Assembly: GCA_013150955.1 (NCBI GenBank) | Contig: JAADJD010000027.1 | Coordinates: 33,522-97,521 of the forward strand | Reading direction: 5' to 3' | DNA: 64,000 bases | Source: Calditrichota bacterium | Lineage (GTDB): Bacteria > Calditrichota > Calditrichia > RBG-13-44-9 > J042 | In this document: positions 8,431 through 34,527 of the stretch, piece after piece | How positions within the stretch are numbered: the first letter of the stretch is position 1 | How the letters are laid out: every line of letters starts with the position of its first letter | Made by a program: the position numbers and the translations under genes | The notes under the pieces: generated by a model | What the model was told of the DNA's origin: nothing | Seen by the model: the letters and a program-made list of their open reading frames with translations, nothing else | The model's database searches: none

Positions 8431-8698
8431 AAACCCGGATGATGCAATATCCTACGAATGACACGAATTCACCCAAATGATGCTTTAGACCACAAATTGC
8501 ACGAATTAACGCTAATAAAATTAATCCCAGATTAAGCAATAGCCTACGAATGACACGAATTAACACAAATAAAACTCATAAAATACATTGGATTGTGTCT
8601 GGATGAAATGTGTTCCAGGGTTTATTCGCGATTTTATTGATATTTATGGGTTCGTTCGCATGATTTGCGGTTTCATGCATCATCCGGGATAAACGGTT
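8431..8698. repeat. MITE-like element: two stuttered left arms (8431-8520) plus one full copy (8521-8698)
   Basis: Sequence identity to the family consensus. Confidence 0.85.
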
Positions 8699-8782
8699 TT
8701 GATTTTGTTTCACCTGGCCCCGGTCTTTTATCTCCAATGATTTACTCTTTATTCGCGGAATATGGGGTAACCCCATTTGAAT

Positions 8783-9913
8783 TCATGAACGGAATGTTTT
8801 CAGAACCGTCTCCAGGGCGCTGGCACAGTAGAGCACGTTTTTGGGATTGCTTCCGTAACCCATGAGGCCAATACGCCAGATCTTTCCGGCCATCGGGCCC
8901 AGTCCCGCCCCGATTTCCAGACGGAATTCCTCCAGAAGCCGCTGACGTACCTGGGCATCGTCCACCCCGTCGGGAATCTGAACCGCATTTAGCTGGGGAA
9001 TCCGTTCCGCTTCGGGGACAAAAAATTCCAGTCCAATGGCTTCCAGTGCGGTTTTCAGCCGGAGGTGATTTTCCCGATGCCGTTGCCAGGCATTTTCCAG
9101 TCCTTCTTCCTTTAACATCACCAGAGCCTCGTGCAGGCCATACAGGTTGTTAATTGGCGCGGTGTGATGGTATGCCCGACGTTGTTGCCCGCCCCAGTAC
9201 TGCATGACCAGATTGACATCCAGAAACCAGCTCTGAACCGGCGTCTTACGATTTTGGATGTGTGCCACTGCCCGCTCATTAAAGGTGATGGGTGCCAGTC
9301 CCGGTGGAGCCGACAGGCATTTCTGGCTGCCGGAATAGACCACATCCAGTTCCCATTCATCCACCTTAAGGGGACATCCGCCCAGGGAGGTTACCGCATC
9401 GACGATCACCAGGCAGTCGTGTTGATGGGCGATGGCCGCCAGCGTGCGGGCGTCAGATAGAGCGCCGGTGGAGGTTTCCGCGTGAACGAATGTCACCACC
9501 CGTGCTTCGGGGTGGGCCTTTAAAGCGGCTTCCAGTTTTTCCGGTTCAATGGCCCGACCCCAGGGCGCTTCCACCACAACGGGCTGTCCACCACACCGTT
9601 CGACCATGGCCTGCATGCGACCACCAAATACTCCGTTCACGCACACAATAACCGTATCGCCCGGCTCTACCATGTTCACGATGGCGGTTTCCATGCCGGC
9701 AGATCCTGGCGCCGATACCACGAAAGTCATGTCGTTGCGGGTTTGAAAAGCGTACTGCAGCAATTGTTTTACCTGATCCATCATGCGGATAAATTCCGGA
9801 TCCAGATGGCCGATGGTGGGGCGGCTCATGGCCTCCAGCACACGTGGGCTGATGTCTGAGGGCCCTGGCCCCATTAAGATGCGCTGCGGGGGATGAAACG
9901 AAGTGATTTCCAT
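8783..9913 (-). CDS. class V aminotransferase (alanine--glyoxylate / serine--pyruvate aminotransferase family)
   Basis: 376 aa; PLP-lysine context …SGSQKCLSAPPG… and overall AGXT-like conservation. Confidence 0.8.
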   Translation of the reverse strand: MEITSFHPPQRILMGPGPSDISPRVLEAMSRPTIGHLDPEFIRMMDQVKQLLQYAFQTRNDMTFVVSAPGSAGMETAIVNMVEPGDTVIVCVNGVFGGRMQAMVERCGGQPVVVEAPWGRAIEPEKLEAALKAHPEARVVTFVHAETSTGALSDARTLAAIAHQHDCLVIVDAVTSLGGCPLKVDEWELDVVYSGSQKCLSAPPGLAPITFNERAVAHIQNRKTPVQSWFLDVNLVMQYWGGQQRRAYHHTAPINNLYGLHEALVMLKEEGLENAWQRHRENHLRLKTALEAIGLEFFVPEAERIPQLNAVQIPDGVDDAQVRQRLLEEFRLEIGAGLGPMAGKIWRIGLMGYGSNPKNVLYCASALETVLKTFRS

Positions 9914-9946
9914 GAGATCCTCCTGATGGTCATTCTCTGCAATTTT

Positions 9947-10573: not shown

Positions 10574-11944
10574 TTATTTTTCCGGACTTTTCACCGAAGC
10601 CAATTTCTCTCGCGAGGGCACAAATTTGCCGTTTCCACCGTCATCCGCTTCTGGCGATTCCTGAAATTGTTCCGCTTCGGTGGATTCATCCAGTGCGGTC
10701 AGGGAGGTGTTCCCACGCGTAATGACCTGAGTGATGGCATCGAAATACCCGGCCCCAACAAAGCTCTGATGTTTGATGGCTCGATAGCCATGGGTGCGTT
10801 CCAGTTCAAATTCCTGTTCCTGCAGCCGGGCATAGGCGGCCATGCCTTCTTCGCGGTAACGCCGGGACAGGTCAAACATGATGTAATTGAGGGCATGAAA
10901 ACCTGCCAGCGTAATGAATTGAAACTTGTATCCCATGGCTCCCAGTTCTTCCTGAAAACGGGCGATGGTGGCATCGTCCAGGTGCAGCTTCCAGTTGAAT
11001 GACGGGGAGCAATTGTAGGCCAGGATCTTTCCGGGATATTTTTCGTGAATTGCCTGAGCAAACAGGCGCGCTTCTTCCAGATCGGGATGCGCCGTTTCGA
11101 ACCAGAGCACATCGGCATAGGGCGCGTAATGCAGGGAGCGTGCAATGGCGGCTTCCAGGCCATGGCGAACCCGGTAAAATCCTTCGGCGGTGCGTTCGCC
11201 GGTTAAAAATGGCTGATCCCGTTCGTCGATGTCGCTGGTTAGCAGTTTGGCGCTGTTTGCGTCGGTGCGGGCGATGATGATCGTGGGAACGTCCAGAATG
11301 TCGGCAGCCAGTCGGGCAGCGACCAGTTTCTGAATGGCTTCCTGGGTGGGAACCAGTACCTTACCGCCCATGTGCCCGCACTTTTTGGCGGAGGACAACT
11401 GATCTTCAAAATGGACGCCGGCAGCGCCGGCTTCAATCATGGCTTTCATCAGCTCAAAGGCATTGAGCACTCCACCGAATCCCGCTTCTGCATCGGCAAC
11501 GATGGGCGCCATCCAATAGGGCATATCCTGGGTGCGGCCTTCGGCACACATGATTTGGTCGGCCCGTAACAGGGCATTGTTGATGCGTCGTACCAGATTG
11601 GGCACGCTGTCTGCAGGATACAGGCTTTGATCGGGATAGGTGTGCAGGGCATCATTCATGTCTGCGGCCACCTGCCATCCGCTGACGTAAATGGCTTTCA
11701 GGCCTGCCTGTACCATCTGAACGGCCTGACTGCCTGTTTGAGCCCCCAGTGCCCGGATGAACGGTTCTGATTGGAATAATTGCCACAGCCGCTCGGCTCC
11801 CAGGCGCGCCAGTGTATATTCAATCTTTACAGTTCCACGCAATCGTAGCACATCCGCGGCGGAATAAGGGCGTTCAATTCCTGCCCAGCGCGGATGGGTT
11901 TTCCATTCCTGTTCCAGCTTCTGAATCTCGGCCTTTTGTTGCAT
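10574..11944 (-). CDS. aceA: isocitrate lyase
   Basis: 456 aa; ICL signature K-K-C-G-H (…[13 protein letters not shown]…) and full-length conservation. Confidence 0.92.
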
Positions 11945-11987: not shown

Positions 11988-13589
11988 TTACAGATATTTG
12001 TAAGCCACCAGCGTCAGAAAGTCTTCAAACGTCTCGGTGGTGGACAGGTAATTAAACAATTCGGTGGCCAGCTGGAATTTCCCTTTTTCAAACCGCTCAT
12101 CCCCAACCAGTTTCCGAATCTTGTCCAGTTCTTCGGGAACCAGGCGGTGGTACAGTTCGGTGGATACTTCCCGGCCATCCACCATGCGTGCCCGGTTCCG
12201 AATCCACTGCCATACCTGCGCCCGCGAAATTTCCGCCGTGGCGGCATCTTCCATGAGATTGTATATCGGAACGCAACCCACGCCGCGCAGCCAGGCTTCC
12301 AGGTACTGAATGGCCACGTTGATGTTGGTCCGCAGCCCTTCTTCGGTGATGGTGCCTTCGGGTACCCGGAGCAAATCTTCTTCGGTAATGGTCACGTCGT
12401 CCAGTTGCCGATGAATCTGATTGGGCGTGGGCATTTTTTCATCGAACACCGATTTGGCCACGTGGACCAATCCCGGATGCGCCACCCAGGTGCCGTCGTG
12501 TCCGTCACCGGCTTCTCGTTCCTTATCAGCACGGACCTTCTCCAGTGCCTGCTCGTTGGCCACCGGATCGTGTTTGATGGGAATCTGGGCGGCCATTCCG
12601 CCCATGGCATGGGCTCCCCGACGATGACAGGTCTGGATTAGCAGGCGAGAATACGAGCGCATGAAATGGGTGGTCATGGTGACCTGTGCCCGATCCGGTA
12701 GCACAAACTCCGGATAATTGCGGAATTTTTTAATGAAGCTGAAAATGTAATCCCAGCGACCACAATTGAGTCCGGCGGAGTGATCCTTTAACTCGTACAG
12801 GATTTCATCCATTTCAAACGCCGCCAGAATGTTTTCGATGAGCACGGTGGCCCGGATGGTGCCCCGCGGAATGCCCAGCGCATCCTGCGCGTAATTGAAG
12901 ACGTCGTTCCAGAGGCGGGCTTCCAGATAATTTTCCAGCTTGGGCAGGTAGAAGTAGGGACCGGTTCCTTTTTCCAGCAAGGTGGTGGCGTTGTGGAAGA
13001 AGAAAAGGCCAAAATCAAACAAAGCGGCCGAGACCGGCTTGCCATTCAAAAGCACGTGTTTTTCTTCCAGATGCCATCCCCGCGGACGTACCATCAGGGT
13101 AGCAATCTGCGGCTTGAGCTTGTAGTGTTTTCCTTCTGGGCTGGTGTATTCAATGGTTCCCCGAACCGCATCCCTTAAATTGACCTGTCCCTGCACCACG
13201 TTGAACCAGGTCGGGGAATTCGAGTCTTCAAAATCGGCCATGAACACATTGGCCCCGGAATTTAGCGCATTGATGATCATTTTCCGATCGACCGGACCGG
13301 TAATTTCCACTCGCCGATCTTCCAGGTCTGGTGGAATGGGGGCCACTTTCCATTCCTTTTCGCGAATCGCCCGCGTTTCCGGCCGAAAGGTAGGCCATTT
13401 GCCGGCATCGATTTCGGCCTGGCGTTCTTCCCGCAGTTGCAAAAGCTGCCGACGGCGTTCCCCAAATTCCTTTTCCAGTCCGGCAATGAACTGCAGGGCC
13501 TGGGGCGTTAGAATTTCCTGAAATGGGGCTCTCATCTCGCCCACAATTTCAATTTCCTGCGCAATCTGGATTAATTCCGGGTACGGCAT
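11988..13589 (-). CDS. aceB: malate synthase A
   Basis: about 533 aa, typical malate synthase A conservation (…[19 protein letters not shown]…). ATG at 13589 preceded by GAGGT RBS; the track ORF begins at GTG 13595. Confidence 0.92.
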
Positions 13590-13739
13590 AGACACCTCGT
13601 TATTTTTTGTCTGCTTGGTTAGATACCAAGATCATGCCAGTGTAATGACGGGATCCAGGATGGTGGTTGTAACATGTTGATAAATAAGGGGATATGGTTG
13701 ATTTGATTCCGATCCCTTTCGAAATGGGGATCGTGGCCG

Positions 13740-13757
13740 TGCGACATTTATGTCGCA
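13740..13757. promoter_or_regulatory. perfect palindrome TGCGACAT-TT-ATGTCGCA upstream of aceB (candidate operator)
   Basis: 8-bp arms, 2-bp spacer. Two further TGCGACA-containing inverted repeats lie at 13868-13893 and 13903-13914. Confidence 0.3.
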
Positions 13758-13867
13758 TCTTGTGCCATCGAATTACCCCGGCGGAATCGGGAATTGTTCC
13801 CGGATGCTCTTCAGAAATGCCCATTCGCTGATGGAATCGGTTAAAAATGGATCATTACCGTTTGCAT

Positions 13868-13893
13868 GGGGTGCGACATTTGAGTCACACCCG
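13868..13893. promoter_or_regulatory. inverted repeat GGGGTGCGAC-ATTTGA-GTCACACCCC sharing the TGCGACA core
   Basis: 10-bp arms with one mismatch; same core motif as the 13740-13757 palindrome. Confidence 0.25.
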
Positions 13894-14155
13894 GGGTGCG
13901 TTAGCATTGTCGCACTTTGGGTCAGGCCGGCGAAAAATTTTGTTTTTCTGCATCCCGGCCTTATATTATTCGCCAGCTTAAATGATTGTCGGATTGGACG
14001 GCGTTCGAGAGGTTCCGGTCGAACGGTTCGGAGGACGATTTCCCCCGCCCGCTGAACCCGATGGATAAGCGGGTCCCCTTTTCTGAACCCGCCGACACGT
14101 TCGCATTTCGCCACCCTTTCCGGGTATGCTTACCAAAAAATGGAGGAAAGCGGTC

Positions 14156-14821
14156 ATGTTTGTGGGACATTACGCAGCCAGCCTGATGTTAAAACAAGTG
14201 GATCGGCGCCTGTCGCTGGGATGGTTGTTTCTGGCAGTCCAGTTTGTGGATATTCTGTTTTTCCCGCTGGTTTTGCTGGGCATTGAACGGTTGAACATTG
14301 TGGAAAATTATACCGCTTCCACTCACTTTGAACTGGTGTACATGCCCTTTACCCATAGCCTGGTGGCCTCGTTTATCTGGGCGTTCATTGTTTATGGTGG
14401 GGTGCGTTTGCTTTCCCGAAAACAGCGCTGGTTTTATCCCGCGGCAGCCGGTGCGATGGCGCTGGCGGTATTGTCTCACTGGTTCCTGGATTTGCTGGTC
14501 CACACCCCGGACCTTCCCCTTCTGGGGGACAGTTCCCTGAAATTGGGATTGGGATTGTGGAATCATGCGCTGGCAACTTACCTGCTGGAAGCGGGCCTGC
14601 TGATGCTGGGACTGTTCCTGTATTTGAAGTCCACCCGCGGCAGTGGATTTCTTGGAAAGTATGGAATGATTATGTTCACGGTGTTTTTATTGCTGGCGAA
14701 TGGTCACAACATTTTCGGACCGCCCATGGGTGAAAGTGTGGCCGCACTGTCGGTTTCAGCCCTGATGTCTTATTTCGGCTTTGCAGGATTGGCTTTCTGG
14801 CTGGATCGGTACCGGCATTAA
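14156..14821 (+). CDS. integral membrane protein, YdjM-like (inner-membrane metal-dependent hydrolase family)
   Basis: Six predicted TM helices. MFVGHY…HSL…HWFLDLLVHTPDLPLL resembles PF04307-type proteins. GGAGGA RBS before ATG 14156; the track ORF starts 30 nt upstream. Confidence 0.5.
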   Translation: MFVGHYAASLMLKQVDRRLSLGWLFLAVQFVDILFFPLVLLGIERLNIVENYTASTHFELVYMPFTHSLVASFIWAFIVYGGVRLLSRKQRWFYPAAAGAMALAVLSHWFLDLLVHTPDLPLLGDSSLKLGLGLWNHALATYLLEAGLLMLGLFLYLKSTRGSGFLGKYGMIMFTVFLLLANGHNIFGPPMGESVAALSVSALMSYFGFAGLAFWLDRYRH

Positions 14822-15054: not shown

Positions 15055-16494
15055 TCAGGAATGGGAGTCGGTTTTAAGGGGGCCGTTTTTAAAGGTATCG
15101 GCTTTGATGCGGTGTTTGGCCATCAGTCGCTGGAAGGTTCGGCGGGGGACACCGGCAGCACGGGCGGCACGGGAGACATTCCCGTTGTTTTCGGCCAGGT
15201 AGCGACAGATGGCTTCATATTCGAACCGATCGACCACCGCCGCTTTCATGCGCATCAATCCCCCTTCCAGAGGTTCATCCGGCATCAGGGTTTTGAAATC
15301 ATCAGGCTGCAACATGAGCGGTAGGTGAGGCAGGTCGATCTCGTCGGTATTGGTTAACACCACGGCATGTTCAATCACGTTTTCCAGTTCACGCAGGTTT
15401 CCTGGCCAGTCGTATTGCACCAGGGCGGCCATGGCAGCTGGCGAGATTTTGTTCACATGCTTATTGACTTTCGCCTGGGCAATTTTCAGGAAATGATAGG
15501 CAAACAGCGGAATATCCTCCTTTCGTTCCCGCAGGGATGGCATGTAAATGGTAAAAGCGTTCAGCCGGTAGAACAGGTCCATGCGGAATTTTCCTTCCTT
15601 GATGGCATCTTCCAGCTGGCGATTGGTGGCGGCGATGACCCGCACTTTTACGCGCTTGGTCACCGTATCGCCAATGGCCCGAATTTCCCCGGATTGCAGA
15701 AAGCGCAGCACTTTGGCCTGCATTTCCAGGGGCATGTCTCCCACCTCGTCCAGAAAAATGGTGCTTTCGTGCGCCAGCTCCAGCAGCCCGATTTTATCCT
15801 GCGTGGCGCCCGTAAAAGCGCCCTTTTTGTACCCGAATAGCTCGCTTTCGATTAACGATGCGCTGAAGGCGGTGCAGTTAACGGTGATCATTGGCTTGTG
15901 TCGCCAGGGACTTTTCTGGTGGATGAGGCGGGCGACCAGTTCTTTGCCGGTGCCACTTTCCCCGCGGATGAGCACCGTGGTCGGCGTGGGAGCCACCCGC
16001 TCAATGAGACGCATGATTTCCTGCATCTTACGGGTTTTTCCGATGATGAATTCACCTTCGGATAGACGATCCAGTTCGCGGCGCATCAGGTGATAGGTGC
16101 CTTCCAGAATTTGCTTCTGGCGGTATTCGTCCAGCAACATCCAGATCAGGCGAGCGCTGAGTCCCCCCAGGATTTCCACCTCGGCCGGTTTTTCCCGCAG
16201 CAGGGATTCCTGTAAGGCGGCATCTCCGGTAACGTTGATGATGATGTCCATATTTCCCTGATCCAGGAAGTGCCGGTAGTCCCGGTGGACGGGAATCCGA
16301 TATTCCCTGGCGAGGGCCACGCCCGGTGCGTCGGGATTAATTTCTGCTACCCCCACGACTTCCACCGAGGGATCATTCTTTAACAGCCGCAGGAGCATGC
16401 TACCCGCGCGCCCTGCACCGATGATCAATACCCGAAGGGTTTTCTGCCATTCTTCAGCCATGGGTGCGTTTCCTGAGTTTCCATCATTCTCCAT
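15055..16494 (-). CDS. sigma-54-dependent transcriptional activator with an N-terminal Rossmann-type NAD(P)-binding-like domain and C-terminal HTH
   Basis: Central AAA+ sigma-54 interaction domain (GESGTGKE Walker A, GAFTGA, …DWPGNLREL…). N-terminal about 120 aa reads LRVLIIGAGRAGSMLLRLL…VEVVGVAE… (GxGxxG dinucleotide fold) instead of REC/GAF/PAS. Confidence 0.8.
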   Translation of the reverse strand: MENDGNSGNAPMAEEWQKTLRVLIIGAGRAGSMLLRLLKNDPSVEVVGVAEINPDAPGVALAREYRIPVHRDYRHFLDQGNMDIIINVTGDAALQESLLREKPAEVEILGGLSARLIWMLLDEYRQKQILEGTYHLMRRELDRLSEGEFIIGKTRKMQEIMRLIERVAPTPTTVLIRGESGTGKELVARLIHQKSPWRHKPMITVNCTAFSASLIESELFGYKKGAFTGATQDKIGLLELAHESTIFLDEVGDMPLEMQAKVLRFLQSGEIRAIGDTVTKRVKVRVIAATNRQLEDAIKEGKFRMDLFYRLNAFTIYMPSLRERKEDIPLFAYHFLKIAQAKVNKHVNKISPAAMAALVQYDWPGNLRELENVIEHAVVLTNTDEIDLPHLPLMLQPDDFKTLMPDEPLEGGLMRMKAAVVDRFEYEAICRYLAENNGNVSRAARAAGVPRRTFQRLMAKHRIKADTFKNGPLKTDSHS

Positions 16495-16888
16495 CTACCG
16501 GGGGTGTTCTCCAGCGGGATTTATATGTTGTACCCCGATTCGGTTCTCCTTCCGCTGATCAATGGTCGATACAGATGAGATCATCTTCGATAAATTCCCT
16601 GAAATTTTAATGCTTTTTTTAAATTTATTCAGAAAGCCGGGGGAATCAAAAGCCGAAATCGCAATCCTGTACGCCAACTGAGTGGACCCCACCGGATCAA
16701 AGTCCTGAAAACTCGTCTGGCACCGGAATATTAGCGGCATTCTATCTCGCCAGAAGATGGTCAAATGTTCGCGTTCCAGGATGAGCGTTATTAGCCCTTT
16801 TTGGGAATTTAGCGAACTTTTGCCCCCTTAAGATTTGTCTTTTCCCGAAAAAAGGGTTAAAATCGGTAATTAAAAAAAGGATATTTGC

Positions 16889-30432: not shown

Positions 30433-31421
30433 ATCGGGACGTTCTCACCAACGGATGGGAGTAAATAAAAAAAGGGAGCTTTTTTGGCTACCCTTTGTTC
30501 AGCGGGGCTCAGGAGACTCGAGACTTGCGCCCTTCCCGACGGTGTCGGGACGTTCTGACCAACGGAAGGGGTTGGGGAAAAAGAAAAGGGGAACGTTTGA
30601 AGCTCCCCTTTGGTTCAGCGGGGCCGACGAGACTCGGGGCCTGCGACCTTCCCGACGGTGTCGGGACGTTCTGACCAACTGAAGGGGTTGGGAAAAAGAA
30701 AGGGGAGCGTTTTGGGCTCCCCTTAGTTCAGCGGGGCCGACGAGACTCTGGGCTTGCGCCCTTCCCGACGATGTCGGGACGTTCTGACCAACTGAAGGGG
30801 TTGGGAAAAAGAAAGGGGAGCGTTTTGGGCTCCCCTTGGTTCAGCGGGGTCGAGTAGACTCGAGGCTTGCGCCCTTCCCGACGTTGTCGGGACGTTCTGA
30901 CCAACGGAAGGGGTTGGGAAAAAGAAAGGGAAGCGTTTTGGGCTCCCCTTTGGATCCGCGGGGCCGACGAGACTCGGCGTCTGCGACCTTCCCGACGATG
31001 TCGGGACGTTCTGACCAACGGAAGGGGTTGGGAAAAAGAAAGGGGAGCGTTTTGGGCTCCCCTTTGTTCAGCGGTGCTCAGGAGACTCGAGGCTTGCGCC
31101 CTTCCCGACGATGTCGGGACGTTCTCACCAACGGAAGGGGTTGGAGGAAAAAGAAAAGGGGAGCGTTTTGAGCTCCCCCTTTGTTCAGCGGTGCTCAGGA
31201 GACTCGAACTCGCGACCTTCCCGACGGTGTCGGGACGTTCTAACCAACGGAAGGGATTGGGGAAAAAGAAAAGGGGAGCGGTTTTGAGCTCCCCTTTGGA
31301 TCTGCGGGGCCGACGAGACTCTGGGCTTGCGCCCTTCCCGACGATGTCGGGACGTTCTGACCAACTGAAGGGATTGGGGAAAAAGAAAAGGGGAGCTTTT
31401 TTGAGCTCCCCTTTGGATCCG
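30433..31421 (-). repeat. tandem array (about 9 units, period about 115 bp) of decayed tRNA-Asp copies, each followed by a terminator hairpin
   Basis: Each unit keeps the tRNA-Asp 3' segment (GAGTCTCGTCGGCCCCGC) and D-arm (AGTTGGTYAGAACG) but has lost the acceptor 5' strand and anticodon loop. Each unit ends (minus strand) with GGGGAGC-n7-GCTCCCC plus TTTCTTTTT. Units are more than 90% identical to each other and about 65% to the intact tRNA. Confidence 0.85.
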
Positions 31422-31495
<74 letters not shown>

Positions 31496-31612: not shown

Positions 31613-32989
31613 TTAGGTAATCCCATATTTCTTCAACTTGGACATGAAGGTGCTCCGGTGAATGCCCAGCTTTTCCGCCGTGCGCAACTTGTTGAAATTG
31701 TTCTCCCGCAGTGCCTTCAAAATAATCTGCTTTTCATAAGCATCCACCAGTTCATTTAACGAGCGGTTGGTATCGATTTCGAACGTTTCGGGTTCCTGGG
31801 ACTGCACCACGTAAGGCGGAAAATCCTTAATGGTCAAAATTCCCGTTTTGTTCAGCACGACGGCACGTTCCAGCAAATTTTCCAGCTCGCGAATATTCCC
31901 CGGCCAGTGGTACGATTGCAGATACTTCATGGCTTCATCATCCACGGCCTGAATCTGTTTATTGAATTCCCGGTTAAACTTCTCCAGAAAGTGGCTCACC
32001 AGCAGGGGAATATCGTCCCGCCGTTCCCGTAACGGAGGCACCTCGATGGGGATAACATTCAACCGGTAGTACAGGTCCTGACGGAATTCTCCCTTTTGCA
32101 TGGCTTCTTCCAGATTGCGGTTGGTGGCCGCGATGATGCGCACATCCACCTTAATCGTTTCCGTGCCGCCAACGCGTTCAAATTCTCCTTCCTGAATAAC
32201 CCGCAACAATTTCAATTGCATGTTGGGGGAAATGTCCCCAATTTCATCCAGAAAAATGGTTCCCCCGTGGGCCAGTTCAAAGCGCCCCAGTTTATCTTTG
32301 ATGGCCCCGGTAAAGGCGCCTTTCACGTGACCAAAAAGCTCACTTTCCAGCAGGTTTTCCGCCAGCACGGCACAATTCACCTTTACGAAAGGTTTTTTGG
32401 CACGATCGGAATTAAAGTGAATGGCGTGGGCAATCAGCTCTTTTCCGGTACCGCTCTCTCCCCGGATCAACACCGTGGAGCTGGTTTTGGCCACATCCTT
32501 AACCAGCTCGAACAGCTCCAGCATCTTTTTGTTTTTACCAACGATGTTGTCGAACTTGTATTTCTTGGCCAGTTTTTCTCGCAGGTATTCATTTTCCCGG
32601 ATAAGGGATTTTAGCTGGGCAATGGTTTCGACCTTGGCCACAATTTCATCCAGCCGCAGCGGTTTCAGGATGTAGTCCTTGGCCCCTTTCTTCATGGCCT
32701 CCACCGCCGTTTCGATGGTGCCGTGGGCGGTGATCATGATGACCGCAATGTCCGGGTACTTCTTGCTCACCACGTCCAGCAACTTCATCCCGTCCATTTC
32801 CGGCATCACCAAATCGGAAATCATAATGTCCGGTTCGTGGTCGCGAATGATGCTCAGGGCTTCCAGGCCGTTCCGGGCCGTGTACGTCTCGTATCCGTTC
32901 TTTTGAAACAGCTCCTCCATTAAGTCCAGTGCATCCACTTCGTCGTCCACAATGAGAATTCGGGTTTTCAATGCGTTACCCTCCTGCAT
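31613..32989 (-). CDS. sigma-54-dependent response regulator (NtrC family: REC + AAA+ + HTH)
   Basis: REC domain (…ILIVDDE…D…ISDLVMPEMDG…KP…), GESGTGKE, GAFTGA, C-terminal Fis-type HTH. Confidence 0.88.
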   Translation of the reverse strand: MQEGNALKTRILIVDDEVDALDLMEELFQKNGYETYTARNGLEALSIIRDHEPDIMISDLVMPEMDGMKLLDVVSKKYPDIAVIMITAHGTIETAVEAMKKGAKDYILKPLRLDEIVAKVETIAQLKSLIRENEYLREKLAKKYKFDNIVGKNKKMLELFELVKDVAKTSSTVLIRGESGTGKELIAHAIHFNSDRAKKPFVKVNCAVLAENLLESELFGHVKGAFTGAIKDKLGRFELAHGGTIFLDEIGDISPNMQLKLLRVIQEGEFERVGGTETIKVDVRIIAATNRNLEEAMQKGEFRQDLYYRLNVIPIEVPPLRERRDDIPLLVSHFLEKFNREFNKQIQAVDDEAMKYLQSYHWPGNIRELENLLERAVVLNKTGILTIKDFPPYVVQSQEPETFEIDTNRSLNELVDAYEKQIILKALRENNFNKLRTAEKLGIHRSTFMSKLKKYGIT

Positions 32990-33003: not shown

Positions 33004-34527
33004 TTATTTATTTCGCTTTTTACTACGGGTGGTCGTTGACCGGCTTTCGGTGTTGGGAGCCGGTTGCCGATCGTATACCGGAAATTCAATGACCAGGGTG
33101 GAGGTTTGCTGTTCGTCTTCATCGATGCGCAGGGTGCCGCCGTAGTTGGAGAAGATCGTGTGCACGATGGCCGATTCCAGGCTCGACCCCGAGGTTGCCG
33201 ATTGCGTAAGCAGCCGGAATGGTTCAAATGTTTTTGCCAGATTGTGTTTGCCTTCGGGAACAAATTCCAGACGAACCCGCGGTTTGGGTGAAAAGGCCTT
33301 CGACACATGGGCGCTGATGGTTAAACCGATGGGCTCGCTTGTCATATTCTGGAATCCCAGAAACAGATAATGGAACGCATCCTCAAACTGATACTTATTC
33401 GCCTCGATGCGAACCTCCCGTACCGCCGGTTGAAAATCCATTTTAAAGCGCACGTTGGAGTATTGCTCCTGCCGCTTTTGGATGAAATTTTCAAGAAACT
33501 CCGTGATGGAAAAGATTTCCGGAATGGTATCGTCCCAGTTAACATTAAATTTCAGCAACTGGGTAACAATGTAGGAAATGCGATCGATTTGCCGCTGAAT
33601 AATCTCGAAACTCTTCTGGTATCGCCGATCGGTGAAGTCCTTTTTTAACAGCTGAATGCGTCCGGAAAGGATGTTAATGGGATTGCGAATCTCGTGAGCC
33701 AGTGCATTGGCCAGATTGGCGATGCTGGCCAGTTTTTCCTTGCGCAACAACTGGTTGAACAGTTCGTTCTGAAACGTGGTGTTCTCCAGAGTAATGATCA
33801 GTCCGGCCGTTTGACTCCCGTTTTCATGAAGAAAGTCCGCACTGAGGTTAACGTCCAGCTTCTGCTGATTGTCCACCCGCAGGGTCACCCGGTAGCCACC
33901 CACCGGTTTCCCGATCATTAACTGATGATACACGTGGTTCAGCACCTTGTACCCGTCAATGATGTAATTCTGCAGGTTCTGGTTGAACAGTTCATCAAAG
34001 GATGTTTTCAGGAATTCCTCGGCCGTGCTATTGCAGTACTGGATTAAAAAATCCAGGTTGACCACAAAAATGGCCTCGCTGCTACTGTTCAACAGATTTT
34101 CATAAAAGCGACGGGTTTTCTGGTTTTCTTCGATCAGTCGTTGATTTTCTTCCCGCAGGTTCAGGTGGGTGGTAGCCTGCAGCAGCGCCGCGTTGAGGGC
34201 CTCTACCGGAAACGGTTTCAACAGGTACGCGTCCACGCCATAGTTCAGCGCGCTGATGGTATTTTCCAGCGTGGCATTTCCCGTGATGACGATGGTGTAC
34301 GCATGGGGAAAGCGATGTTTCAGGCGCTCGTACACCTGCAATCCGGTACCATCGGGCAGCACCATGTCCAGTATGGCGATGTCGATCTTTTGCTGTTCAA
34401 TCAGCGTGCGGGCATCGGACAGGGAATGACCGACGAACACATCGTAACCCAGTGACCGAAGGTGCTTTTCCAGGTCTAAGCAAATTTCTTTTTCATCATC
34501 AATGAGTAAAACTTTCCAGGGGGTCAT
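33004..34527 (-). CDS. hybrid sensor: N-terminal receiver domain + PAS + HisKA dimerisation/phosphoacceptor domain, with divergent ATP-binding region
   Basis: REC (…VLLIDDE…DMVLPDGTG…KP…), PAS-like middle, H-box …ALAHEIRNPIN…. Downstream N/G1/G2 boxes are poorly conserved (FQNMTSEP…PEGKHN…SGSSLES). Confidence 0.7.
   Translation of the reverse strand: MTPWKVLLIDDEKEICLDLEKHLRSLGYDVFVGHSLSDARTLIEQQKIDIAILDMVLPDGTGLQVYERLKHRFPHAYTIVITGNATLENTISALNYGVDAYLLKPFPVEALNAALLQATTHLNLREENQRLIEENQKTRRFYENLLNSSSEAIFVVNLDFLIQYCNSTAEEFLKTSFDELFNQNLQNYIIDGYKVLNHVYHQLMIGKPVGGYRVTLRVDNQQKLDVNLSADFLHENGSQTAGLIITLENTTFQNELFNQLLRKEKLASIANLANALAHEIRNPINILSGRIQLLKKDFTDRRYQKSFEIIQRQIDRISYIVTQLLKFNVNWDDTIPEIFSITEFLENFIQKRQEQYSNVRFKMDFQPAVREVRIEANKYQFEDAFHYLFLGFQNMTSEPIGLTISAHVSKAFSPKPRVRLEFVPEGKHNLAKTFEPFRLLTQSATSGSSLESAIVHTIFSNYGGTLRIDEDEQQTSTLVIEFPVYDRQPAPNTESRSTTTRSKKRNK

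Follow-up and report, generated by a model that had tools for sequence, protein, structure and literature searches.

A Sigma-54 Enhancer-Binding Protein with a Predicted NAD(H)-Type Rossmann Input Domain beside the Glyoxylate-Shunt Genes of a Calditrichota Bacterium

The Activator Gene and Its Domains

The 64,000-nucleotide stretch of DNA analyzed here (hereafter the window) comes from a Calditrichota bacterium (contig JAADJD010000027.1, positions 33,522 to 97,521) and carries on its minus strand the gene for a 479-residue sigma-54 enhancer-binding protein, whose N-terminal input domain is predicted to be a Rossmann fold of the NAD(H)-binding type and whose target is very probably the nearby aceBA operon of the glyoxylate shunt. 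A preliminary description made from the sequence alone had been right for this open reading frame (ORF), with its strand left unstated. The gene and its domains are as follows.

15055..16494, minus strand: sigma-54 enhancer-binding protein gene, 479 aa, ATG start, stop codon included (ORF list and translation; Pfam and NCBIfam scans)
16165..16440, minus strand: Rossmann-type dinucleotide-binding sensor, residues 19-110 (Pfam, AlphaFold2 (AF2), Foldseek against PDB, PDB profile search, conservation counts)
16057..16164, minus strand: long linker helix, residues 111-146, with conserved A114 and W118 (AF2 models, conservation)
15304..16047, minus strand: sigma-54 interaction AAA+ domain and lid, residues 150-397 (Pfam, GAFTGA position, invariant columns)
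15115..15231, minus strand: Fis-type helix-turn-helix (HTH), residues 422-460, recognition helix PRRTFQRLMAKH (Pfam HTH_8; covariation with the operator variant)

With an AAA+ core, a GAFTGA loop and an HTH domain all present, the protein is a bacterial enhancer-binding protein. Sigma54_activat (PF00158) matches residues 150-316 with 231 bits, followed by AAA_lid_14 (residues 322-397) and HTH_8 (residues 422-460; 27.4 bits, cutoff 22). The GAFTGA loop occupies residues 225-230 (nucleotides 15822-15805), and the Walker motifs A (GESGTGKE, 178-185) and B (FLDEVG, 247-252) are both intact. The family alignment shows no variation in GESGTGKE, in D249-E250 or at the loop residues G225, F227, T228, G229 and A230; A226 is at least 90% conserved. 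The complete AAA+ domain and Fis-type HTH noticed in the preliminary description are confirmed by these results.

The Pfam scan of the whole protein detected no receiver (REC), PAS, GAF, V4R, ACT or CARF domain, and no NCBIfam equivalog of any named activator attained its cutoff. At the N-terminus, GFO_IDH_MocA (PF01408) matched residues 20-88 with 26.2 bits for the whole protein and 28.6 bits for the N-terminus alone (cutoff 24), the match spanning profile positions 1-70 of 120 only. DapB_N scored 24-27 bits against a cutoff of 25.6, and other NAD-binding Rossmann families matched more weakly. The domain is kept in all of the 120 best homologs listed, which argues for more than a chance match. 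A GxGxxG Rossmann module in the place of REC, GAF or PAS had been proposed from the peptide LRVLIIGAGRAGSMLLRLLKNDPSVEVVGVAEINPD (residues 20-55), and this assignment was borne out by Pfam, AF2 and Foldseek; the domain search of the N-terminus returned a nucleotide-binding Rossmann fold, with the GxGxxG lying outside any other known sensory domain.

Predicted Fold and Nearest Relatives of the Input Domain

The AF2 model of residues 1-148, which was built from 28 diverse family sequences, is a Rossmann fold with a predicted local distance difference test (pLDDT) score of 88, and consists of five beta-alpha units followed by a long helix. Its elements are beta1 (20-25), alphaA (29-39), beta2 (44-50), alphaB (57-64), alphaC (74-79), beta4 (84-87), alphaD (92-101), beta5 (107-109) and a single long helix (111-146); beta3 comprises two residues at about 69-70, under the 3-residue listing threshold of the tool. 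The landmarks of the sensor are G26-A-G28-R-A-G31, Glu51, A56-P57-G58, T89-G90 and G110-G111, and in the model the glycine loop G26-G31 follows beta1 and Glu51 follows beta2. A full-length AF2 model (pLDDT 84) contains the Rossmann domain, a continuous helix 111-144, the AAA+ core and the HTH. The helix has lower confidence there, as is expected when a probable coiled coil is modeled as a monomer, and helix 111-146 is presumed from the models to be a coiled-coil signaling helix.

Searching the PDB with the 1-148 model by Foldseek returned, at probability 1.00, NAD(P)-binding Rossmann domains only. They include acylating acetaldehyde dehydrogenases (PheF 7Z3S, DmpF 1NVM_B, HsaG 4JN6_B and 4LRS/4LRT) as well as Gfo/Idh/MocA enzymes, ArgC, meso-diaminopimelate dehydrogenase, RSP (3WG9/3WGI) and Thermotoga maritima Rex (7WB3). 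The profile search of the module against the PDB gave PheF (4e-7), DmpF (6e-6), AmnH (7e-6), 4LRS_B (3e-5) and Rex (0.014). The nearest characterized relatives of the module are therefore the DmpF/PheF-type acylating acetaldehyde dehydrogenases, and then Rex; the likeness to NAD(P)-dependent oxidoreductases suggested earlier holds for the nucleotide-binding Rossmann fold, whereas DapB or Gfo/Idh/MocA proteins are not the closest relatives.

Residues 1-148 contain no cysteine, and the fold stops after beta5 with no catalytic or dimerization second domain. Because the catalytic domain and all cysteines are absent, we infer from the sequence and the model that the module is a cofactor-binding sensor without catalytic equipment. 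Its origin would be an enzyme like acylating acetaldehyde dehydrogenase, of which the cofactor-binding half was kept and the catalytic half lost.

The 120 best homologs listed are all near full length (70-97% of the query covered; 53-96% identity over about 94% of the length), carry generic names only, and come from candidate division KSB1, Calditrichia, SAR324, Rhodothermales, Methylomirabilota/Rokubacteria and Binatia. Among the 121 sequences compared, the glycine loop is kept at G26 in 116, at G28 in 115 and at G31 in 107; Asp or Glu occupies position 51 in 119; and A56, P57 and G58 are found in 115, 111 and 113. Similarly, D83 is present in 115 sequences, T89 and G90 each in 114, and K102 and W118 each in 118. 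Judged by this conservation, the putative ligand pocket is under selection. An acidic residue after beta2 is typical of NAD(H) sites, and the GxGxxG loop together with the near-invariant Asp/Glu at that position favors NAD(H) over NADP(H). We infer that NAD(H) is the favored ligand of the sensor and that coenzyme A (CoA) is a possible one.

Comparison with characterized systems places the activator outside their families. The Rex comparators used were those of T. aquaticus and B. subtilis together with RSP (3WG9/3WGI). Rex and the activator are both transcription factors with a catalytically dead Rossmann domain, in which GxGxxG and an acidic residue serve the dinucleotide (for the activator as judged from motifs), and in both a long C-terminal helix leaves the Rossmann fold, with Foldseek aligning 136-140 of the 148 residues (135-140 alignment columns), this exit helix included. 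However, Rex is a sigma-70 repressor of about 210 residues with an N-terminal winged helix and a C-terminal Rossmann domain, whereas the activator lacks a winged helix and has its Rossmann domain at the N-terminus, connected through a helix with the AAA+ ATPase and the Fis-type HTH. Its sequence kinship to Rex is also weaker than to DmpF-type enzymes, and the NCBIfam Rex model gave an E-value of 0.008 (15.8 bits against a cutoff of 126).

The DmpF/PheF/MhpF/HsaG enzymes (1NVM_B, 7Z3S, 4JN6_B) are the best matches to the module (E-values 4e-7 to 3e-3; root-mean-square deviation 2.1-2.4 A over about 95-100 residues) and have in common with it the pattern G-x-G-x-x-G...(V/I)D-x-(S/P)-x-G-L-x-x-A. 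Unlike the regulator, which ends its fold after beta5, they have a second domain with an active-site cysteine and pair with an aldolase, and the position of Asp51 in the activator family is Gly in the enzymes. The NCBIfam model TIGR03215 reached 22.3 bits against a cutoff of 282, over profile positions 2-79 only. Pfam gave no match to the C-terminal substrate-binding domain of Gfo/Idh/MocA proteins (GFO_IDH_MocA_C), residue 146 being followed by the AAA+ domain. In a review of enhancer-binding proteins, the CARF domain of RtcR is the only Rossmann-like, nucleotide-related input catalogued (PMC4987338); CARF belongs to another Rossmann-like family, which lacks the GxGxxG dinucleotide loop, and the NCBIfam RtcR model aligns to residues 146-455 only, which is the AAA+/HTH part. 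Since the defining second domains are absent, the protein lies outside the Rex, DmpF, Gfo/Idh/MocA and RtcR/CARF families.

The aceBA Operon as the Predicted Target

In the preliminary description the targets of the activator had been called unknown. Enhancer sites and a -24/-12 element, both conserved across loci, now point to the adjacent aceBA operon. The relevant features of the window are listed here together with their counterparts in L001, the locus whose activator is 87% identical to the query (loci are referred to by such numbers below).

11988..13595, minus strand: malate synthase A gene, aceB (ORF; 83% identical to the L001 gene, which has Pfam MS_N, MS_TIM-barrel and MS_C)
10574..11944, minus strand: isocitrate lyase gene, aceA (ORF; 85% identical to the L001 isocitrate lyase gene)
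13896..13915, minus-strand reading: candidate distal enhancer site 1, GTGCGACAATGCTAACGCAC, 2 mismatches (motif scans)
13871..13890, minus-strand reading: candidate distal enhancer site 2, GTGTGACTCAAATGTCGCAC, 1 mismatch, 25 bp after the start of site 1 (motif scans)
13739..13758, minus-strand reading: candidate proximal enhancer site 3, ATGCGACATAAATGTCGCAC, near-perfect palindrome, 1 mismatch (motif scans)
13624..13639, minus strand: sigma-54-type -24/-12 element, TGGCATgatctTGGTA (sequence; same place in 13 loci)
13670..13682, minus strand: weak site resembling the integration host factor (IHF) consensus, TATCAACATGTTA, between the proximal repeat and the promoter element

The aceB gene probably starts at the ATG at 13589, just before which stands GAGGTG, and aceA follows 44 bp downstream. 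When the window was scanned with the operator consensus GTGCGAC-N6-GTCGCAC at no more than 2 mismatches, three matches were found within 177 bp upstream of aceB, about 0.2 being expected in 64 kb, and the same scan gave no further match elsewhere in the window. The three repeats lie 111-270 bp upstream of the -24/-12 element, which reads TGGCAT-N5-TGGTA. Its -24 GG is present; 111 bp separate it from the center of the proximal repeat, and the probable ATG of aceB comes about 35 bp downstream of it. A strict scan of the window for TGGCAC-N5-TTGCW returned chance-level counts and missed this element, which was spotted by eye and then backed by cross-locus conservation. No sigma-70-like promoter was seen in the aceB-proximal region. 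The IHF-like site is confined, across the loci compared, to the window and L001, and for this reason no claim is made for the family.

Co-Occurrence of Activator, Operator and Carbon-Assimilation Genes

The window, L001 and L005 served to define the operator motif; the remaining loci were fetched independently and most were examined afterwards. Family loci were sought with the pattern L[LI][IV]GAG[RQH]AG[SH], which yielded nine true family loci, the remaining matches being unrelated Rossmann proteins. Overall, the activator, two to three repeats and a GG-N10-G(C/T) element co-occur in 13 loci from several lineages, and the genes downstream are the following.

L001 (87% identity to the query): aceBA
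L011 (Calditrichia, 63% identity): aceB
L005/L006 (Calditrichia, 56% identity, differing outer flanks): aceBA, then DUF4212-SSF
L049 (Calditrichota): actP-like DUF4212-SSF and two acetyl-CoA synthetases
L045, L051, L053 and L054 (Methylomirabilota/Binatia-labelled, syntenic): two small Cys-rich ORFs and a gene of the isocitrate lyase (ICL)/phosphoenolpyruvate (PEP)-mutase family
L004/L010 (KSB1): RuBisCO and phosphoribulokinase (PRK)
L014 (SAR324): form II-like RuBisCO and PRK
L050 (Rhodocaloribacter): HAD-cbbL-cbbS-prk-tkt-fba-glpX
L008 (short contig): repeats and promoter element, with no downstream gene assigned

A 2+1 plan of operators is found in 11 of the 13 loci, with a distal pair whose starts are 21-25 bp apart and a proximal site 82-157 bp further on. 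From the center of the proximal site to the GG, the distance is either 52-63 bp or 100-128 bp; helical phasing of these distances was considered and is not clean, and no claim is made on it. In L004 the sites adjoin RuBisCO, 4.5 kb from the activator gene. Moreover, the central base of the operator differs by clade (TGCGAC, TGTGAC or TGAGAC), and the recognition helix (PRRTFQRLMAKH, SRRTYHRLMEKH or TRRNFHRLLVKY) changes along with it. The -12 dinucleotide is GC in L004, L005, L008, L011, L014 and L049. This conserved co-occurrence of activator, operator, promoter and operon suggests that aceBA is very probably a direct target of the activator in the window, and, as far as the neighboring genes indicate, the family-wide theme is the assimilation of C2 and C1 carbon.

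Several further observations were made in these regions. The GT-type -12, T(T/G)GT(A/C), is found at 13624-13639 in the window, at about 9998 in L001, at 10279 in L050, and in the Methylomirabilota-type loci at 9528 (L045), 9514 (L051), 8514 (L053) and 8531 (L054). It thus appears in three separate clades that have sister loci with GC, and may be a tolerated or leaky promoter variant. The small Cys-rich ORFs of the latter loci (63 and about 51 aa, CxxC-type, one or two per locus) stand between the sigma-54-type promoter and the ICL/PEP-mutase gene at 9584-9775 (L045), 9772-9927 (L051), 8570-8927 (L053) and 8593-8948 (L054), and have no Pfam match. An unannotated protein of about 390-400 aa precedes the acetate-permease-like DUF4212-SSF pair in L005 (14299-17434) and L049 (10204-13441), and may be a conserved component of an acetate-uptake unit under the activator.

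Proposed Mechanism and Alternative Explanations

The reading that we prefer, and regard as reasonably probable, is that an enhancer-binding protein with an NAD(H)-type Rossmann input binds the three repeats and activates aceBA through a sigma-54 promoter. Dimers would bind by their Fis-type HTH to the three inverted repeats, the distal pair and the proximal one, upstream of aceB. Occupancy of the Rossmann pocket by a dinucleotide, with NADH versus NAD+ as the likeliest case, would shift the packing of helix 111-146, by which assembly of the AAA+ ring would be released or promoted; three dimer sites would supply six AAA+ protomers, equal to one hexamer. By means of ATP and its GAFTGA loops, the ring would then open the sigma-54 promoter 111 bp downstream and switch on malate synthase and isocitrate lyase. 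Elsewhere in the family, genes for taking up and activating acetate, a gene of the ICL family or operons of the Calvin cycle would be driven by the same design. In this proposal, the architecture, fold, motif conservation, neighborhood and operator/promoter layout were computed here; which ligand binds and in which direction it acts are interpretation, as are coiled-coil signaling, hexamer seeding and sigma-54 dependence in vivo.

Each half of such a mechanism has a precedent. In Rex, a Rossmann dimer with an exit helix turns NADH versus NAD+ occupancy into a rigid-body change. NorR and NtrC1/DctD have the same AAA+ core, GAFTGA loop and Fis-type HTH as the activator; NorR likewise has three enhancer sites before one promoter, all of which are required for activation, and NtrC1/DctD has a helical linker between input domain and AAA+ core, a coiled coil that holds the inactive dimer. 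Their inputs are different, being a GAF domain with non-heme iron in NorR and a receiver domain in NtrC1/DctD, neither of which the activator has. By analogy, the activator may work like Rex in sensing and like NorR or NtrC1 in output. Its logic would be to tie routes of carbon assimilation, which either save or use up reducing power, to the redox state of the cell. The targets fit a redox cue: the glyoxylate bypass skips two decarboxylations that yield NADH, and the Calvin cycle serves as an electron sink. Activation at a high NADH/NAD+ ratio would be the most economical reading.

A number of findings weigh against this proposal. With regard to the promoter, the -12 dinucleotide is GT rather than the canonical GC in the window, and the same is true of L001, L050 and the Methylomirabilota-type loci, so that function as a sigma-54 promoter is an assumption there. 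With regard to the genomic setting, an unrelated plus-strand gene (14126-14821) stands between the activator and aceB, rpoN is not in the 64-kb window, and L012/L013 and L047 (P0041, L047/48) have no operator or obvious target nearby. With regard to the sensor, the pocket is degenerate in two members of the family, P0034 (GSGRST, Gly at position 51, no APG and no Trp) and P0070 (GAGSTS), both of which are still found beside aceBA or acs, implying that ligand sensing is not universal or that another ligand is used. These findings bear on three alternative explanations.

One alternative keeps the activator and its aceBA target, and takes the pocket to sense CoA, acetyl-CoA or another adenine-containing acyl carrier that reports the supply of C2 units; we regard this as unlikely, though deserving of attention. 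The nearest solved relatives of the module by both sequence and fold are DmpF/PheF/HsaG-type enzymes, and the Rossmann site of such enzymes is reported to serve both NAD+ and CoA (Lei et al. 2008, cited in PMC4762007). A single site of this kind in DmpF means that the ligand of the activator could be a CoA species, which counts against an NAD(H) sensor, and many of the predicted targets (aceBA, actP and acetyl-CoA synthetase) are centered on acetyl-CoA. However, the activator also stands on RuBisCO/PRK operons in three lineages, where an acetyl-CoA signal is less obvious; the near-invariant acidic residue typical of NAD(H) sites is aligned to Gly in DmpF/PheF; and the presence of the module on hundreds of kinases and cyclases fits a global redox cue better.

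It is more doubtful still that the Rossmann module is a ligand-free relic used for dimerization or docking, with the signal coming from a partner or from expression level and the activator being essentially constitutive. Enhancer-binding proteins often have pseudo-sensor domains, and P0034 and P0070 keep the same genomic role with their degenerate glycine loops. On the other hand, GxGxxG, Asp51, APG and VTG are at least 90% conserved over about 120 activators and over unrelated outputs, which is hard to explain without a bound nucleotide, and no conserved partner gene adjoins the activator, the small upstream ORF not being conserved.

Finally, that the repeats belong to another transcription factor, with aceBA expressed from a sigma-70 promoter, the adjacency of the activator coincidental and its real targets elsewhere, would agree with the GT at -12, with the intervening plus-strand gene and with a protein-DNA link drawn from sequence, but is improbable given that activator, repeats, -24/-12 element and carbon-assimilation operon occur together in 13 loci of several lineages with differing other flanks, that the central base of the operator covaries with the recognition helix, that no sigma-70-like promoter lies near aceB, and that the sites in L004 track the target RuBisCO and not the activator gene 4.5 kb away.

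Spread of the Module and Its Implications

The occurrence of the module beyond sigma-54 activators was investigated by searching its profile against 1.84 billion cluster representatives (50%-identity clusters), of which 1,921 matched at E<=1e-3 and 1,204 at E<=1e-10. The matching proteins range from 100 to 1,300 aa and carry the module almost always at the N-terminus. Among 82 representatives of at least 280 aa, HATPase_c was present in 49, HisKA in 46, PAS in about 50, GAF and REC in 19 each, GGDEF in 13 and Sigma54_activat in 7, histidine kinases thus making up the majority. Across kinases, cyclases and activators, conservation is at least 90% for the glycine loop, the acidic residue, APG, VTG and the Trp of the exit helix. 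No dedicated family for the module was found in Pfam (models to 2025) or NCBIfam. Its presence on these different outputs points to a general cytoplasmic input domain of signal transduction, of which sigma-54 activators are one output.

We tentatively propose, as a possibility short of an even chance, that the module is an unrecognized and widespread cytoplasmic NAD(H)-sensing input domain (about 1,900 clusters) on histidine kinases, diguanylate cyclases and sigma-54 activators, and that its sigma-54 branch would serve as a redox-to-carbon-assimilation switch for glyoxylate-shunt, acetate-activation and Calvin-cycle operons in KSB1, Calditrichota, SAR324, Rhodothermales and Methylomirabilota.

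Among transcription factors, the direct sensing of NAD(H) is, to our knowledge, a property essentially of the Rex-type repressors. If the proposal is correct, a Rossmann sensor on an AAA+ sigma-54 activator would be a second and mechanistically different redox readout, and the module on kinases and cyclic di-GMP cyclases would extend redox reading to two-component and second-messenger signaling. IclR/RamB- or CbbR-type sigma-70 regulators govern the operons for the glyoxylate shunt, acetate assimilation and RuBisCO in model bacteria. The regulon predicted here for uncultured phyla suggests, from the sequence evidence, that such operons appear to be sigma-54 dependent there. In the full-text literature, no enhancer-binding protein with a Rossmann input was found described, which is no proof of novelty, nor was a comparable sigma-54 activator of aceBA or cbb genes or a Rossmann sensor on kinases or cyclases. 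We rate the activator chassis as known, and the apparently general input module and the predicted regulon as new. Domain shuffling is expected in enhancer-binding proteins; what stands out is the NAD-type sensor, its spread over about 1,900 clusters, and the predicted sigma-54 control of the glyoxylate shunt and RuBisCO. With a defined operator, a three-site layout and a short soluble sensor, the hypothesis is directly testable.

In three of the histidine kinases, P0121 (811 aa), P0124 (763 aa) and P0129 (345 aa), the sensor profile matches in 2-3 separate stretches, and the best stretch in such kinases is internal (residues 161-283 and 124-240). The sequences suggest tandem copies of the Rossmann module.

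Other Features of the Window

Several neighboring features of the window were also recorded. The gene between the activator and the aceB enhancer sites (14126-14821, plus strand) encodes a 231-aa multi-pass membrane protein. It is absent from L001, which has a 620-bp non-coding gap in its place, and therefore looks like a lineage-specific insertion. An 89-aa ORF abutting the start of the activator (16495-16764, minus strand) was considered as a partner and rejected, since it has no real homology with the genes called in the corresponding position of L001 and L003; all of them look spurious. After aceA, an Aminotran_5 gene (serine/alanine-glyoxylate aminotransferase-like) is found both in the window (8783-9913, minus strand) and in L001 (13398-14534). 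Although about 660 bp lie between them, the two genes may form part of one glyoxylate-handling unit.

The window encodes another sigma-54 activator, of the ordinary NtrC type (31613-32989, minus strand; REC-AAA+-HTH, 458 aa, GAFTGA at nucleotide 32320). The gene immediately upstream of it codes for a REC-PAS histidine kinase (33004-34527, minus strand). The presence of this second activator suggests that the organism uses sigma-54. In addition, a 113-bp unit is repeated in tandem about 8.8 times (30434-31495, 87% matches), and this array abuts a gene for tRNA-Asp (31421-31495, minus strand). The array yields a spurious repetitive ORF of 250 aa, and every unit contains a GC-rich hairpin beside an A/T run.

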